Assembly: GCA_965112155.1 (NCBI GenBank)
Contig: OZ218104.1
Strand: one strand, 5' to 3'
From: Podarcis liolepis
Lineage: Eukaryota
Length of the DNA: 64,000 bases
Positions 7,802 through 64,000 of this stretch are shown piece by piece (within the stretch, counting starts at the first letter, position 1; each line of letters starts with the position of its first letter). The position numbers were made by a program, and so were the translations under genes. The notes beneath the pieces are model-generated. The model was not told where the DNA came from. It made no database searches and saw only the letters and a list, made by a program, of their open reading frames with translations.

Positions 7802-8394
7802 TACCTCTTTTCTTCCCCACAAAGAATTATTTCCTTTCTGGGGACTGTGGGACATCACATTTTTCTTTCAGGAATCTGGAAGGAATTTTTTTAGGGCAGA
7901 GAGAAAGTGCAAGAAGGACAGCTCCTCATGCTGCCAGCTTTGTGAATGGCTTTATCACGTCTTTTTAGCCCTGACAAAACCCACTCTCCTACTTAAAAAG
8001 CATCAACACACCCATTCTTCTTGCCTGTACACCTCAGGCCTCCTGGCAGTTAATCTCCCTCAAACCCTAAAGCATTGGCGAGAATGAAAAATGGAGATGC
8101 CAAGCTGGCCCAGCCTCAAAAGACTATTGTTAGAAATGAGATTGTGGCAGTTGTCAGCAAGGGAGGAAAGAGAGCAGGAGGGGAAGAGGAAAGGGACATT
8201 TAGGGCGATGCATCTCTGACACTCTGACAGCAACAGGCACCAGGATCAAGAGGAGCACATCTAAACTGTCAGGGCAGAGGTGCAAACTTCCCTGGAAGAT
8301 AATGCGATTTGGATTGTTGGCTCTTGCAAAACAGAAAAAGCGAGATGGAAATTATGTCCATCCAGGTGATACTTCTCTGTTTCCCTAGACAAAT

Positions 8395-9784: not shown

Positions 9785-10659
9785 TACTTTCCATGTACAG
9801 TGTAGATGTGGCCCAAGAGTGCAAACCACAGCTTGCATTGTGATATACGTCAGTCGAGAATTTGCAGGGTATGTGTGCGTGAGAGAGAGCATTGCTATTT
9901 AATTTTGATGAGTTTGCCATGTTTTGAGTTCTGATGAATTTTGGCAGACAGCATGGCAGAAGAGATGTGGGATTATGGGAAGAGAGAGAGAAGAGAAGAG
10001 ATGGGGAGGTGGAGAAGGGGGCACATTCAGACTTGGGGGACAGATGAGGACCCCTTCACCTTTTTGTAAGTGTCTCCACAGAGATTTGAACTCCAGCATC
10101 ATTAATTCCTGTGTGGGGTCTTAGGTACACCAGGTACCACATCAACGGCGGGGAAGGCAGACATTTATTCTGGCCCACAGACATATTTTGGTATTGATTC
10201 TACATACATGAACAGTCACTGCAGAGACACAAAAATGAGTGGGGAAATTGCTAATGACGGTGTTGCTCTATCAAGCTCCACAAGCCATTGATAACTCTCG
10301 ATATAATGAAAAGCGATCACAAGTCACACAATAGTGTGACCAACATTCCATTGCATGATAGCACATCTAAGAAACAGAACCCAGGCAGGAGCAGATGAAC
10401 AGGGTAGATAGTTAGAGGTGAGAGGGGGTGTCCCTTCCTTTCCAGTGGTGTCCCTTCCTTTCCCTTTCAGACCTGTAAGGGAAATTACACAGCTACTCTT
10501 TGGGGCCTTCTTGTAATAAGGGCAAAATCTGTCCTCTCTCTTTCTCTCTCCCTCCTGTGTTTCACCAAGTAGGTATCAAATGGCTTACAGGGATGAAATT
10601 TACAATACACAATATTAAAAGCATAAATTAAACCTCAAGGTATGATCTCAACAGGAGGG

Positions 10660-10797
10660 CCTGGGCAGCTCAGTTGGTTAGAGCGTGGTTCTGATAACGC
10701 CCAGGTTGCAAGTTCGATCCCCGTATGGGACAGCTGCATTGCAGGGGGTTGGACTAGAAGATCTTTAGGGTCTCTTCCAACTCTACAATCCTATGAT
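10660..10797 (+). mobile_element. tRNA-Ile-headed SINE with CR1-derived tail
   Basis: Head AGCTCAGTTGGTTAGAGCGTGG..CTGATAACG..GTTCGATCCCCGTA resembles vertebrate tRNA-Ile (A and B boxes). Tail TGCATTGCAGGGGGTTGGACTAG...TTCCAACTCTACAATCCTATGA matches the CR1 3' end at 39776-39847. Confidence 0.8.
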
Positions 10798-12110
10798 AAG
10801 CAAAGCGTCTGAGAAGCATTTAGGAAGCCAAAGCCTCCTGAAAGGAAACCGTTTTGAGCAGGTGCCTGAAGCTCAGTACAGACAGTGCCTGAGCAATGAT
10901 GGGCAGGTGCACCAAACAGGGAGAGGAGTCCTCTCTTGCCAGGGTTTCTCCAGGTGCCACGATGTACTCCCCGCCCCCCCCACACTGCTCACAGAGACAC
11001 TCTGCACATGCACACACCATGCTGCCCTCTTGATAGCATTCCAGGGTGCCAGCAGAGCAGCTCAGTCAGGCCTGATGGAACGAAAGCCTTTCTTTCGTGC
11101 AACCATCCTGGCTCCCGCAGAGAATTTATGGGGCTGTGAAAGGTGCAAAGAGCTGCCGGCGGCTCTTCCTCAGCACCCTGCGCCTCCCTACCCCCCCACA
11201 TGCTCTTCACTTCAGCACCATTGCCATTTCGAGCACATCCCTGCCCAGCCAGACCAAGCCTGTAAACAACCTCACACTTCATCATCCCTTCGATTCCGGC
11301 AGCTTGGCTGCCTTTGATGTAGCTGGCCTGAGCCCCCTCTATGCGAGGCTCCTTGCTCTAAGTGCGTTTTAATAATGCAGCACCTCTGTGCAGTGGCGCC
11401 CGTGGAAGTGCAGTGCTGGAGAGTGGCTGGGATCTGTGGTGAGACCGGAGAGGTGATCTGGGGATGAGCCAGGAGGCCTCCCAAGTTTAGCAGTTATTAA
11501 TTACGGACACTTTCCTGGAGAACCATTGGAAGGGAAAAAATAACTGCGCTCGGAGTTTGGGCATAATGAGCAAAGACTCTTTGGCACTGGGGAGGTGTGG
11601 CATCTTCCAGAAGGCCGGATCGATAGAGTTGCCCATCTGCTAATGTATTAAGCTGGCTCTCTGCAAACAACGCCTTTCCGTGGTCTCCTCTTGCCCCTCC
11701 TTTTCTGCTGATGGAGTTGCCCTCCTCCTCGCAGGGAGACCTTTCTCAAACAGGAATGCAGCTCTACACACTTATTTTCAGACTCTGCCAATGTCTAGGT
11801 GCCTCGTCTTCGCCCAGGAAACCTCAGGGGTGGCTTCCCTTTGGAAAAATTCATGCTCCAGATTGCTCCCAATAACACACACACATACACCCCCCCTCTC
11901 CCTCCCTACATGCACATTGGGTTGTATCCAATGCCAGTCCTACACAGAGTAGACCTACTTAGCTGGATATGGCCAAATATTCTAATATTCTCTTGCTTCA
12001 TACAGGGATCTGTACCGAGGGAGTATGAGGCTCCCAGCTGAAGCAGAACAAAGTAGAGATCAGACAAGATCCAGCACCTTGGAGAGCTCCCAGGTACCCA
12101 AACTTTCCCC

Positions 12111-12159
12111 TCTTGTGTATCTGAAGAAGTGTGCATGCACACGAAAGCTCATACCAAGA
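12111..12159 (+). ncRNA. Minimal type I hammerhead ribozyme motif
   Basis: Stem I GTAT(12117-20)/ATAC(12151-54). Core CUGAAGA 12121-27, then an extra A. Stem II GTGTG-CATG-CACAC. GAAA 12143-46. Palindromic AGCT in place of a full stem III. CUC cleavage triplet ending at 12150. Confidence 0.7.
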
Positions 12160-12207
12160 ACTAACTTAGTTGGTCTTTAAGGTGCTACTGGAAGGAATTT
12201 TTTTATT
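12115..12207 (+). mobile_element. Short Penelope-like element (PLE) terminal fragment
   Basis: CTGAAGAAGTGTGCATGCACACGAAAGCTCATACC...GTTGGTCTTTAAGGTGCTACTGG is the type of motif seen in squamate PLE terminal repeats. 11-bp direct repeat TTTCCCCTCTT at 12104-12114 and 12208-12218. Confidence 0.75.
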
Positions 12208-14219
12208 TTTCCCCTCTTAAGACAGCTACAGGATGGGGCATGTGGAGGAACTTGTTGGCTACTTAAAAGGCCTCCTCTCATTTGGCTGCTATGGTTTCTG
12301 TGTTGGTGGGGAGGCAGAGGTTCAGCAGAGGAGTCATCATCTGACTCAGATGATAGTGGCAGGGCTGAGTCCCCAAATAACACCCCCTCTCAGCCAAGAA
12401 AGTAACCTCAGAGTCTGCAAGGTCCCTGGCTGGGTGTGAGATTACATAGGGTGTCCAGGGCCAAAACTAGGCTTTCTGTCACCTGGGACAAAGACACAGT
12501 TTGGCAAGCCCCCCCCCCCACGTACCTTTACATACACACGCACAAAACTCAACACATTTGTTCATAAAGGGCATAAAAACGTAATTTGAAAGAGACCGGA
12601 GAAGAGATAGTGTCTCTAAATAGTAAAAGGGTCTGTGTATGTACCGGTATCTGGCTTTCATTCAACCTTAAGTAGATCTCCGGAATTCTAAGAAGTATTA
12701 TGACTGTATGACCAAAGGAAAAAAAGAAAAGAAAAAGTAAATTGTTTGTCAAAAGTAGAGCTTCCCTGTGCAGCAATTGTCTATCTGAGGCCAGGTTTTG
12801 AATTGGATTGATTTGGTTTCAAGGCTTCATTTCCATAAGATCAGCCAAGATACTCTGCTTTCCTGGCAAGCATTGGTCAGCTAGGCTCAATTGAAAGGGT
12901 TTGCACAGAAGAACATGACTTTAAAATACCTGGGTGTTTGTCTAACTTATCCTGTTTTCCGTTTTTTAAAAAAATGCTTTATTGAATTTTTCACAAACAT
13001 AAATAAAACTTAATCTTTTACAGTCATCATTTTATGTCATAACTTATCCTGTTTTCCTAAGATCCTGCTACATATCTAGGGTGACTGGGAAATTAAGTAT
13101 AATTAATTAATTAATTAATTCTATATTCTGCCCTATAACTGCAGGTCTCAGGATGGTTCACAAGATAAAATTACAATATACAAACACTAAATACATAATA
13201 AAAAAAACCAAAAGCAGCCCAATAACCCCCTCCAACACATTTTAAAATGGCATTGGATTATTTTTAAGACATTAGTTAAGGGTCTGTGTATCATGTATTT
13301 TTAAAGTCTTTAAAAGTTGCAAGTCACAAGTCCTTCCCCAATAATATAAGGAATTGTAAATAACATGATTAAAGCAGAAGAGGGAGTGAAATCTGAAACT
13401 GAAAAAGCCACCACACATTATTTACAACAACCTTATCACAAGTTCTCAAGACTCAGTCTAAAGAGAGAAGAAACAGCCTCAGTACAAATATATAAATATA
13501 ATAATTATATTGTAACAGATGTAAGATTAAAGCGGGGGGAATTTTGGCCAATGCAAATTCTCCCCACACTCAAAGAACTCAAGTAGACCTCTCCTCAAGT
13601 CCTCCCTAGGTTAGGAATGATGAAGGTGCCTGTGAAGCCTGGTGGTCGGCTTGCTTTTCCCATGCCCTCTCTCCCACAGAGCCACAAGCTTTTGGGAGTT
13701 TGGGGAGAGGAGAAAGGGGAGGAGGAGATCTGGGGCCCAATGCCACCCCTTGACAACAGCCATGCATTGGACCAAAGCCTGAGACCCTTTGAAACTTTGG
13801 AGATACACAAAACGTTCAAGAGAACTTCCTATTATCTTCTCACCACAACTCTTTTTCACTCCTCCCTTAAACTCCTACCAATGTTTTAATTGAGCTGGCC
13901 CTAAAAATCTACAGTAAATTCCCCTATAGGGGAAATTCAGTGGGGGAAGTGCTGTCTGGCTGAGCATCTGTGGATTTTCCTACCTGTGAAACTGGAGGGA
14001 GTCACAGCACAGTTCTGGTGCTGCTAGTGTCTTGTTTGTGAAATCACAGCTTTATGGTGCTTTATTGCATTGTTTTATATACATCACCTTGAACTTTGGA
14101 AAGGAAGGAGGGAAAGAGGAGGAGGAGGAGGAGGAGGAGAGAGAAAGAGATAGAGAGAGAGGGAGAGATCTTGAGATCCAGCTACTTTCTGATGATAAGG
14201 GAGGGTAAAGTGAAATTAT

Positions 14220-29368: not shown

Positions 29369-30823
29369 CAGTGAGGGGGGGAAAGTATTTGATACCCTGC
29401 TAAATTTGCCCATTTACTCGACCTGAAGGTTTGAGTACCTACACATCAGCCTCGAAATCTTACTGACTTGGAGAGGATCTGCTAAGAGGAGTGGGACAAA
29501 ATACCTCCTGAGATGGGTGCAAACCTGGTGGCCACCTACAAGAAACGACTGACCTCTGTAATTGCCAACAAGGGTTTTGCCACCAGGTACTGGAGAAGAG
29601 TGACTAGTGGGGTGCCACAGGGTTCTGTCTTGGGCCCGGTCTTATTCAACATCTTTATCAACGACTTGGATGATGGACCAAATTTGCAGATGACACCAAA
29701 TTTGATCAAATTTGCAGATGACACCAAACTGGGAGGGGTGGCTAACACCCCAGAGGACAGGATCACACTTCAAAATGACCTTGACAGATTAGAGAACTGG
29801 GCCAAAACAAACAAGATGAACTTTAACAGGGAGAAATGTAAAGTATTGCACTTGGGCAAAAAAAAAATGAGAGGCACAAATACAAGATGGGTGACACCTG
29901 GCTTGAGAGCAGTACATGTGAAAAGGATCTAGGAGTCTTGGTTGACCACAAACTTGACATGAGCCAACAGTGTGACGCGGCAGCTAAAAAAGCCAATGCA
30001 ATTCTGGGCTGCATCAATAGGAGTATAGCATCTAGATCAAGGGAAGTAATAGTGCCATTGTATTCTGCTCTGGTCAGACCTCACCTGGAGTACTGTGTCC
30101 AGTTCTGGGCACCACAGTTCAAGAAGGACACTGACAAACTGGAACGTGTCCAGAGGAGGGCAACCAAAATGGTCAAAGGCCTGGAAACAATGCCTTATGA
30201 GGAACGGCTAAGGGAGCTGGGCATGTTTAGCCTGGAGAAGAGGAGGTTAAGGGGTGATATGATAGCCATGTTCAAATATATAAAAGGATGTCATATAGAG
30301 GAGGGAGAAAGGTTGTTTTCTGCTGCTCCAGAGAAGCAGACACGGAGCAATGGATCCAAACTACAAGAAAGAAGATTCCACCTAAACATTAGGAAGAACT
30401 TCCTGACAGTAAGAGCTGTTCGACAGTGGAATTTGCTGCCAAGGAGTGTGGTGGAGTCTCCTTCTTTGGAGGTCTTTAAGCAGAGGCTTGACAACCATAT
30501 GTCAGGAGTGCTCTGATTGTGTTTCCTGCTTGGCAGGGGGTTGGACTCGATGGCCCTTGTGGTCTATTCCAACTCTATGTTTCTATGATTCTATGATTCT
30601 ACTAAGTCATCTTTTGCAAAAGGGATCAAATACTTATTTCATTCGTTATAATGCACATCAATCTCTTGACTTTTGGCTTCTGGGTTTCTGGGGGTTTTCC
30701 TGTTGTTATTCTGCCTCTCACAGCTACAATAAAACTACCAGTAAAATTATGGACTGGCCATTTCTTTGTCAGAGGGCACTCAGGCAAATTTAGCAGGGGA
30801 TCAAATACTTTTTGCCCTCACTG
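29369..30823 (+). mobile_element. Internally deleted Tc1 transposon (IR/DR type) containing a CR1 insertion
   Basis: TA TSD. ~41-bp terminal match CAGTGAGGG..AAAGTATTTGAT.CCCTGCTAAATTTGCC at both ends. Transposase C-terminus [47 protein letters not shown] at 29447-29590. GGGATCAAATACTT occurs twice in the right arm. Confidence 0.88.
29591..30600 (+). mobile_element. Young 5'-truncated CR1 LINE (RT C-terminal half)
   Basis: [30 protein letters not shown], and the 209-aa ORF 29887-30516 ([17 protein letters not shown]...). (TTCTATGA)n tail. One frameshift at the A run 29858-29867. Confidence 0.95.
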
Positions 30824-34775: not shown

Positions 34776-35748
34776 CCTGTGAGGGTGTGTTGCTGTGAGT
34801 ACCATGAATCTGCCACTCCCCTCCTGCCTGTCACTCACATTCAGACATGGCAGGCAGTCCTAGTATGCCTGGCAGGATCAGAAACCCTCCAATCTCAGCA
34901 GCACGGATGGAGTTAACGCATGTGAATTTAGGAGGACAAAAAAAAAAAAGTCCCTAAATACATTTTAATGAGCTTCCTTAGAGGAAGGGGATGGGAGTTA
35001 AAACTTCAAGGGACAGCGAGGGCTGAACTCATCCTTTGTGCCTCAGTGGGGGGAGTGAGTGCTGCTCGTCACTCTTCTGCCTCTTGAAAGGGAAGAAAAA
35101 ACCTCCCCCCCTTCCCGACATTCAGGTGGAGGTGACTGTTTTCTCGCTCCCTCTTTTCAAACTCCACATGCGAGCCTAATAGAGCTGTCTAGGTCAAACT
35201 CCCCAGACGCTCTGCTTGTTTCTTCAATTTCTGAGCACTTCAGAAAAGAAAGGAAAAGGTGATCTGGGGAACGGAGAGCACTCCTCTCCGCAGAGCCCTC
35301 ATTTGTAACTGCGCCACTGAAGGCACCGTCAAACAGAGGGAGGGGGCTGCTTGAGACCCCAAACCAATGGCAGGTGCTTCTGGAAGGAATCGAGGAAGGT
35401 AGAAGACACCCAGGGAACAGTGAAGCCAGGACAGGGTGTTTTCCTGTGTAAGTGTGTTGCTCTGTTTATCTTTATTTCTCTCTTTCTCTCTTTCTCACTC
35501 ACACATTCCAACAGGACTCTGGAGACAGAGATGGGCCTTGCACCCCCAGGCCCATTCAAATCCTTCCAGGAGAGGCGATGGCAAAGGTCATCTCCTGGAC
35601 CTCACACCTCCCTGGCCTGTTTCCTGTTAAATGGACTTGAGAGAGTCCCTTCGGCATGAGGACCACTTTTGCAGCCATGGCTCAAGGCTGGTCAAGAGGA
35701 GGCAGGGACATTTTCAAGAGTCTCCAGGGGGCTCACCCCACCCATGTA

Positions 35749-63434: not shown

Positions 63435-64000
63435 AACATGGACCACTTATAAACGTCACCTCCAGCTCCTCGAAAGATTCCATCAATGGTGTCTCCGAAG
63501 GTTTTTACACATCACTTGGGAAGACAGGCAAACTAATGCCTGAGTACTGGAAGAAGCAAAGATCACCAGTGTTGAAGCAATGATTCTTCAACATCAATTT
63601 TGTTGGACTAGTCATGTTGTGCGGATGTCTTCCAAAGCAACTACTCTATTCTGAACTTTAGAATGGAAAGCGTAATGATGGTGGTCAACAAAAGAGGTTT
63701 AAAGACTCTCTCAAGGCAAATCTAAAAAAATGTAGTATAAACACCGACAACTGGGAAACACTGGCCTACGAGCGCTCCAACTGGAAAACAGTCTTTACCA
63801 AAGGTGTCACGGGCATTGAAGTCGCTCAAACTCAGGATGAAAGGGAGAAACATGCTAAGAGGAAGGCACGCTTGGCAAACCCTCACTGTGATCATCTCCC
63901 GCCCAGAAATCAATGTCCCCACTGTGGAAGGATGTGTGGATCCAGAATTGCTCTTTGCAGTCATTTACGGACTCACTGTTAAAACTGTGTTTATGGAAGA
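63435..64000 (+). mobile_element. RTE-clade LINE 3' region (non-BovB), degraded
   Basis: Broken frames read ERFHQWCLR..LHITWEDR..VLEEAKITSVEAMILQHQ..W..HVVRM, PKQLLYSEL, GGQQKRFKDSLK, and a terminal CPHCG motif. Confidence 0.8.

Follow-up and report, generated by a model that had tools for sequence, protein, structure and literature searches.

A hammerhead-bearing 93-bp insertion in Podarcis liolepis as a probable run-off stub of a Neptune-type Penelope-like element

The window analysed here, a stretch of 64,000 nucleotides of Podarcis liolepis DNA (assembly GCA_965112155.1, contig OZ218104.1), carries a 93-bp insert made of one element piece between two copies of an 11-bp direct repeat, TTTCCCCTCTT, which has no third occurrence within the 64 kb (Table 1). 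Four public runs were aligned to positions 10500-13500: the DNA runs X1 (organism A, the closest), X5 (organism D) and X11 (organism G), and the RNA run X21 (organism D). Each of the DNA runs shows the empty site: 12103 is joined directly to 12208 in contigs of X1 and X5, which skip exactly 104 bases with 11 letters that fit on either side, and 12104 to 12209 in the X11 contig. The gain over the empty site therefore comprises 93 bp of element plus one extra 11-bp copy of the target, and the insert is young. The repeat and the empty site together confirm the first-pass annotation, which had proposed an insertion of about 93 bp with its own target-site duplication, and 11 bp is a duplication length that fits an EN+ Penelope-like element (PLE). 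This single copy is a neutral insert.

Table 1. Features of the insertion locus, in window coordinates, with the evidence for each
Feature	Position	Strand	Evidence
Target-site duplication, upstream copy (host)	12104-12114	+	empty site with a single copy; joint ambiguous over 11 letters
93-bp insert, 5' UTR/pLTR end of a Neptune-type Penelope-like element, -2 to +90	12115-12207	+	94/95 match to intact elements
5' boundary at the family hot spot; putative RNA start	12115-12117	+	copy-end counts and parent sequence
Chance stem I extension: host 12111-12114 and G12115 with 12155-12159	12111-12159	+	folding; peer comparison
Minimal type I hammerhead motif	12117-12154	+	sequence; genomic copies; compensatory pairs between families
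Hammerhead stem I (4 bp)	12117-12120/12151-12154	+	sequence
Hammerhead core CUGAAGA	12121-12127	+	sequence
Extra A	12128	+	sequence
Hammerhead stem II (5 bp)	12129-12133/12138-12142	+	sequence
Stem II as a perfect 14-nt palindrome through which two RNAs are predicted to pair	12129-12142	+	self-match; dimer fold
GAAA	12143-12146	+	sequence
Palindromic AGCT	12146-12149	+	sequence
Predicted cut	after C12150	+	sequence
T-rich 3' end, the family's first 3' boundary (putative RT start site 1)	12198-12209	+	arm ends; parent alignment
Target-site duplication, downstream copy	12208-12218	+	repeat match and empty site

The surroundings of the insert were searched by a domain scan that took in 137 of the 140 stop-to-stop frames of at least 95 aa, the three that run over an N run being left out; no host gene was identified in these frames, a length at which short exons would escape. 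The only frame to pass the curated cut-off encodes a LINE-like RT fragment (29486-29929, +; RVT_1, E 1.6e-15) that the Neptune protein does not match by tblastn and that is likely a LINE remnant, and at the window end 63662-63979 (+) gives a weak C2H2 zinc-finger match (E 0.0045) below the cut-off. Two matches of 18-19 bp to the 3' part of the element, at 7876-7893 and 35372-35390 (E 5e-4 and 0.006), may be tiny stubs or chance. Closer to the insert, an 87-bp segment bounded by AG...GT (12008-12094, +), whose end is 9 bp short of the duplication, resembles an exon on visual inspection; none of the RNA joints listed falls on it, and one base, 12071, is missing in all three DNA runs. A fragment of another high-copy repeat lies at 10680-10800, where contig depth is very high in the same three runs.

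Copy numbers were obtained as exact pattern counts in the 1.57-Gb genome, which holds 9,879 copies of the 38-base hammerhead core (reversed control, 0) and 15,581 of a 27-mer from the 3' part; a 34-mer from locus L017 matched only itself. Longer copies extend upstream into about 180 nt of 3' UTR and then a GIY-YIG domain, and the tandem loci L135, L136, L137, L139 and L140, of which L135 and L136 overlap, contain uninterrupted 926-codon frames (910 aa from the first Met). The encoded protein has an RVT_1 domain at 441-586 (E 1.3e-11), a C-terminal GIY-YIG domain at 808-860 (E 2.1e-5), a DKG motif at 317, YIDD, and the linker CNKPRCQLC (CX4CXXC) at 770; a PDB search with this ORF found no relative. 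With the first base of stem I (window 12117) as position 0, the parent reads, in order, a TATA-like box (-33..-26), 20 nt, TCAGT (-5..-1), the hammerhead (0..+37), a T-rich stretch, and the ATG, which stands at +96 to +98, depending on the length of the T run, about 60 nt past the hammerhead. The insert and the two Ts that follow it (12115-12209) match the intact loci L135, L137, L139 and L140 at 94 of 95 bases, with one gap in the T run.

A single ORF with RT and C-terminal GIY-YIG, pLTRs in partial tandem (L135-L140), inverted 5' arms and two 3' boundaries identify the parent as an EN+ Penelope-like element, and the CX2-5CxxC linker between RT and EN, together with the DKG motif, agrees with Neptune. 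Since this linker is common to Neptune and Nematis (PMC8557442) and only the former of these is reported from vertebrates, where only Neptune and Poseidon were reported (bioRxiv 10.64898/2026.07.22.740005), we consider the parent to be Neptune-type. The insert is almost certainly a stub of a Neptune-type Penelope-like element. The locus G000:C1:101118200-101130000 (L135, L136) is a complex array of near-identical intact and inverted Neptune units, with N runs inside one L135 unit.

The hammerhead is of the minimal type I known from PLEs, with an intact core, stems I and II, an extra base before G10.1, a palindromic stem III and an NUH triplet, and a pattern search for CTGAnGA-stem-GAAA gave it as the single match on either strand of the 64 kb. 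All parts of the first-pass description, namely the stems, core, GAAA, palindromic AGCT and cut site, are found in the sequence, and the proposed kinship with PLE ribozymes also holds, the layout fitting published dimer-type PLE hammerheads (PMC4209133). The Rfam scan recommended alongside that description returned no hammerhead match in the window at gathering score or E<=10, which we attribute to technical reasons; nothing in the window reached gathering score, and near the insert there were just three chance matches (E 4.8-8.5). The tandem units by which non-LTR retrozymes are defined are not seen here, the 64 kb containing a single motif and no tandem array.

Compensatory changes are seen between families: locus L243 and a published turtle motif alter both partners at stem I pair 2 and stem II pair 4 (PMC4209133), and three of four matches of an older hammerhead family in the genome are compensated. 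Within the family, nearly all stem II variants (n=74) and all but two of the stem I variants among the first 100 of 305 are uncompensated, as expected for dead copies. The second, older family is represented by remnants at L237 (G000:C4:53332035), L243 (C5:93282020), C15:41620326 and C17:16800847; it has a 16-nt stem II arm and a CUU triplet and is similar to the turtle motif (PMC4209133). By nearest-neighbour folding, the catalytic dimer (-12.7 kcal/mol) is predicted to be disfavoured relative to the duplex formed through the stem II palindrome (-33.0 kcal/mol). Published motifs of the same kind are inactive as monomers (PMC4209133), and the hammerhead of the PAc element needed the protein of that element (PMC11167929); judged by folding and by analogy with these, the lone copy in the window probably does not cleave, and we regard it as inert.

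The 5' end of the insert lies 1 nt downstream of the A of the parent's Inr-like TTCAGT and about 30 nt downstream of its TATA-like box, neither of which is inside the copy, and it coincides with a boundary that recurs across the family. Exact genome-wide counts with one fixed 3' end fall from the 9,879 of patterns starting at 0 to 7,257 at -2, 4,267 at -5 and 3,251 at -15, so that 57% are lost over 5 nt where the rate in the following 10 nt would predict 13%, a per-base loss of 14-16% across 0..-5 and 2.7% beyond. When individual 3'-anchored arms were inspected (the first 100 of 15,581, from C1:1-4.5 Mb), 35 of the 67 arms at risk ended at -4..0, where the upstream rate would give 1.5 and the highest neighbouring rate 5.3; the arms do not count as independent draws, as 60 of the 100 form 30 pairs and all come from one 4.5-Mb stretch. 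The modal end in this sample is -2 (16 arms), as in the window copy, and at the ribozyme cut (+33/34) 0 of 93 arms end. Exact arms with a non-parental preceding base number 2,819 before -2 and 2,985 before 0, and parent sequence was found upstream in none of 80 copies starting at -2 or 0, hand-picked from the first 200 listed with known loci and most copies with an obvious listed partner skipped. Duplications of 8-15 bp flank 20 of the 35 non-inverted copies among these 80, about three of them doubtful, by a scan that passes over two-letter duplications and misses the window's own. Loose ends at 12117 that run into unrelated flanks also rank with the best supported in the runs of organisms A, D and G (66, 65 and 72 contigs), and the TATA-like box, 20-nt spacer and TCAGT are seen again in older subfamily copies.

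The earlier reading of the insert as an extreme PLE truncation was right about the origin, from the pLTR/5' UTR of an intact Neptune-type element, but not about the 5' end, which is the family's dominant boundary and not an arbitrary break. The element type, the hammerhead, the tail, the inverted arms and the abundance of solo copies are already in print; in the PLE literature searched, of which coverage was partial, no mention of a genomic 5' boundary fixed at a TATA/Inr site was found. Two further copies were recorded: L027 (G000:C1:2624351-2625067) is a -4..+94 stub with a 12-bp duplication that landed in an older copy of the element, within its 3' UTR, and L181 (G000:C1:6275330-6276200) runs from 0 through the tail into the ORF, a copy bounded at the start site and primed further downstream.

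The position of the hot spot relative to the two boxes, read from sequence, leads us to infer an RNA start there. Initiators follow a known consensus, and a TATA box typically precedes the start by about 30 nt. Some observations count against run-off at such a start. The mode at -2 sits 1 nt downstream of the Inr-like A (-3), with ends spread from -4 to +3, and many hot-spot ends belong to inverted pairs, where microhomology can shift the joint. Among the copies listed, T precedes 75 of 100 starts at -2 and G precedes 62 of 100 starts at 0, which is no clean signature of a cap-derived extra G at either start. The RNA run X21, from a relative (organism D) without the insert and about 12% read, shows no pile of RNA starts or ends in 10500-13500, and no exon joints among the 15 of its 57 joints that are listed for that interval, and the unique flanks 10803-11913 and 12217-12418 have no depth in it; before 12117, loose ends of this run (91 reads, agreement 0.39) in part resemble what we take to be a template-switch adapter, a lead and not evidence. 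The promoter of D. virilis Penelope, the only experimentally mapped PLE promoter met with in the literature searched, is TATA-less and internal (PMC2377424) and likewise counts against a TATA/Inr start.

At its other end, the window copy stops 4 nt before the first ATG of the parent and has no tail, and the TT at 12208-12209 is common to the element and its AT-rich target. In the same sample of the first 100 of 15,581 arms, 3' ends lie at +76..+100 or at +124..+127, the latter boundary being censored by a reference that ends at +127, as some copies run several bases further. Of 30 head-to-head pairs, 27 have one arm at each 3' boundary (P 4e-6 against independent draws), as would be expected, by analogy, from two RT start sites and an unprocessed template. 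The pairs in C1:1-4.5 Mb (L005-L075) are short head-to-head insertions in which one arm starts at -2..0 and its partner at +1..+37; the joint often runs through the palindromic stem II.

We think it likely that an abundant intact Neptune-type element left the insert as a recent stub, by internal priming on uncleaved RNA before the start codon and by run-off at the RNA 5' end. By analogy with Anolis PAc, the GIY-YIG nuclease would cut AT-rich DNA and RT would start internally at one of two sites. Here, the RNP would nick the target and, with an uncleaved transcript as template, prime at site 1 in the upstream pLTR, RT would copy about 95 nt and run off the RNA 5' end at the predicted TATA/Inr start, and the second junction would close without extra bases; the pile of ends at -4..0 would be the RNA 5' end, and the stub the whole 5' UTR. 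The lone copy would be a dead end, as it has neither a promoter box nor an ORF and the 64-kb window holds no second hammerhead. The direct observations behind this reading are the parent element, the empty site, the 11-bp duplication, both boundaries and the lack of ends at the ribozyme cut. For the family, we lean towards a product resembling a strong-stop cDNA: priming at the upstream RT start sites would copy the 5' UTR only and run off at the capped start, about half of the hammerhead-bearing arms would be complete run-off cDNAs, and one RNP would prime both cut strands at the two sites, as in the 27 of 30 pairs, the run-off strands being joined head to head.

Other processes could place a boundary at this point. 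A cDNA started at the downstream pLTR might be 5'-truncated in the ordinary way, halted at the 5' edge of the hammerhead by structure, protein or a nuclease boundary and with no link to an RNA start, which would agree with truncation being the rule in PLEs (PMC8557442). The boundary does coincide with the 5' edge of stem I, and the hazard is already raised over +1..+10 (13 of 80 arms, among the first 100 of 15,581), but the pile stands at TATA+30, and stem I is predicted not to form when the upstream pLTR is present (P 0.0 over -120..+180). Moreover, RT arriving from the 3' side should be halted at the 3' foot of a hairpin and not after copying it, and we consider a stall of this kind unlikely. 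Splicing is a less probable source still: the sequence does read as an acceptor, a pyrimidine tract and CAG ending at -2, from which stubs of spliced RNA could begin, and the D. virilis Penelope intron ends at helix I (PMC4209133), yet no shared upstream exon is visible in the 80 copies starting at -2 or 0, and in simple copies the duplication usually lies within 0-4 nt of the element, as in the window, so that a 3' splice site seems to us very unlikely.

The first-pass annotation had also raised a ribozyme-bearing mini-retroelement, which as a self-propagating SINE- or retrozyme-like unit would be transcribed, cut by its hammerhead and copied in trans. Thousands of short copies sharing one boundary, with the duplications of 8-15 bp, would suit it, and non-autonomous retrozymes derived from PLEs have been described (bioRxiv 10.64898/2026.07.22.740005). 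Against a lineage of its own, however, the short copies lack the TATA-like box and share all examined subfamily markers with long ones: no marker at the three sites compared was private to short copies across 159 short and 88 long contexts, and each of the four tail variants and of the two +57 variants is found among short and long copies alike, so the short copies appear to have been made repeatedly from each parent subfamily. In addition, copies span the cut site and neither start nor end there, and the window copy is a monomer, not a tandem, with no promoter box inside the unit; we hold this origin to be highly improbable. The same annotation had further proposed that the host bases TCTT and the first G of the insert can extend stem I by pairing with CAAGA, which could stabilise the fold in a + strand transcript. 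The pairing is indeed present in the minimum-energy fold of the 67-mer 12104-12170 (-14.3 kcal/mol, z -2.0), but its pair probability is about 0.2 in 300-500 nt of context and the flank gives a 4-bp extension in 2 of 40 comparable copies; the pairing is real yet at chance level. Since so few peers share it and the insertion is absent from three DNA runs, nothing suggests selection on the extension. The idea of a functional ribozyme, stabilised by the host flank and cutting a + strand host transcript at 12150, would draw on that 67-mer fold, but it is opposed by the same probability and peer count, by the missing insertion in X1, X5 and X11, by a stem III of just one pair, by the inactivity as monomers (PMC4209133) or protein dependence (PMC11167929) of similar motifs, and by the lack of a host gene in the window frames scanned, and we give it hardly any credence.

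If run-off on uncleaved RNA is true, genomic stubs would give the transcription starts of PLEs and their RT start sites to the base, and would point to a template left uncut by the ribozyme. This Neptune-type family is useful for asking how PLEs form their tail and inverted ends, which RNA they copy and what their ribozyme does: its intact elements are nearly identical, its recent insertions have empty sites, and the ends of about ten thousand stubs lead to predictions at the level of single bases, namely an RNA start at -3..0, two RT starts and an uncleaved template. The window copy is ordinary when taken singly; the family is moderately interesting as a read-out of PLE mechanism, of which the first in vitro work with a full-length protein dates from 2024 (PMC11167929).

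Among known systems, the Neptune clade (PMC8557442) resembles the parent in its single ORF with RT and C-terminal GIY-YIG, the CX2-5CxxC linker, the hammerhead pLTR, partial tandems, inverted 5' arms and a tail of 30-40 bp at one end; the two 3' boundaries seen here correspond to the known tail "at one end only". In the available part of that account, 5' truncation is described without a fixed boundary, whereas here about half of the hammerhead-bearing arms share one. With the metazoan PLE hammerheads of Cervera and de la Pena (2014, PMC4209133) the insert shares the 4-bp stem I, the extra base before G10.1, the G10.1-C11.1 pair, the palindromic vestigial stem III and the prevalence of solo copies, and the turtle motif from that work is laid out in the same way, with compensated changes in stems I and II. 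It differs from them, as far as they are described there, in a 5-bp stem II that forms a perfect 14-nt palindrome and in a motif nearly invariant in the genome, and the ribozyme processing of the template proposed in the same paper is not mirrored in the copy ends found here.

The closest experimental system is PAc, a Poseidon element of Anolis carolinensis (Frangieh 2024, PMC11167929), for which two internal RT start sites, cutting of both strands and an uncleaved template have been shown; two 3' boundaries a tail apart, an AT-rich target and, on our reading, the uncleaved RNA template are common to both. In PAc the ORF starts inside the hammerhead and RT starts 111-118 nt into the ORF, unlike in our parent, where the ATG follows the hammerhead and site 1 precedes the ATG, and the accessible text on PAc reports no genomic pile of 5' ends. 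The Pen2a pLTR of the rotifer Adineta vaga (PMC3846280) shares a TATA-like box, 20 bp and an Inr-like pentamer, as well as an ORF start inside the pLTR and tail, a short duplication and an inverted arm. Pen2a is single-copy, and self-priming on an antisense template was the explanation given for its palindromic joints, whereas the thousands of copies in our family point to run-off on sense RNA. Animal non-LTR retrozymes (bioRxiv 10.64898/2026.07.22.740005) are likewise short, non-coding, PLE-derived and equipped with a type I hammerhead, but they are tandem repeats with a hammerhead in each unit; the insert, in contrast, is dispersed and monomeric, aligns colinearly with an intact parent and spans the cut site.
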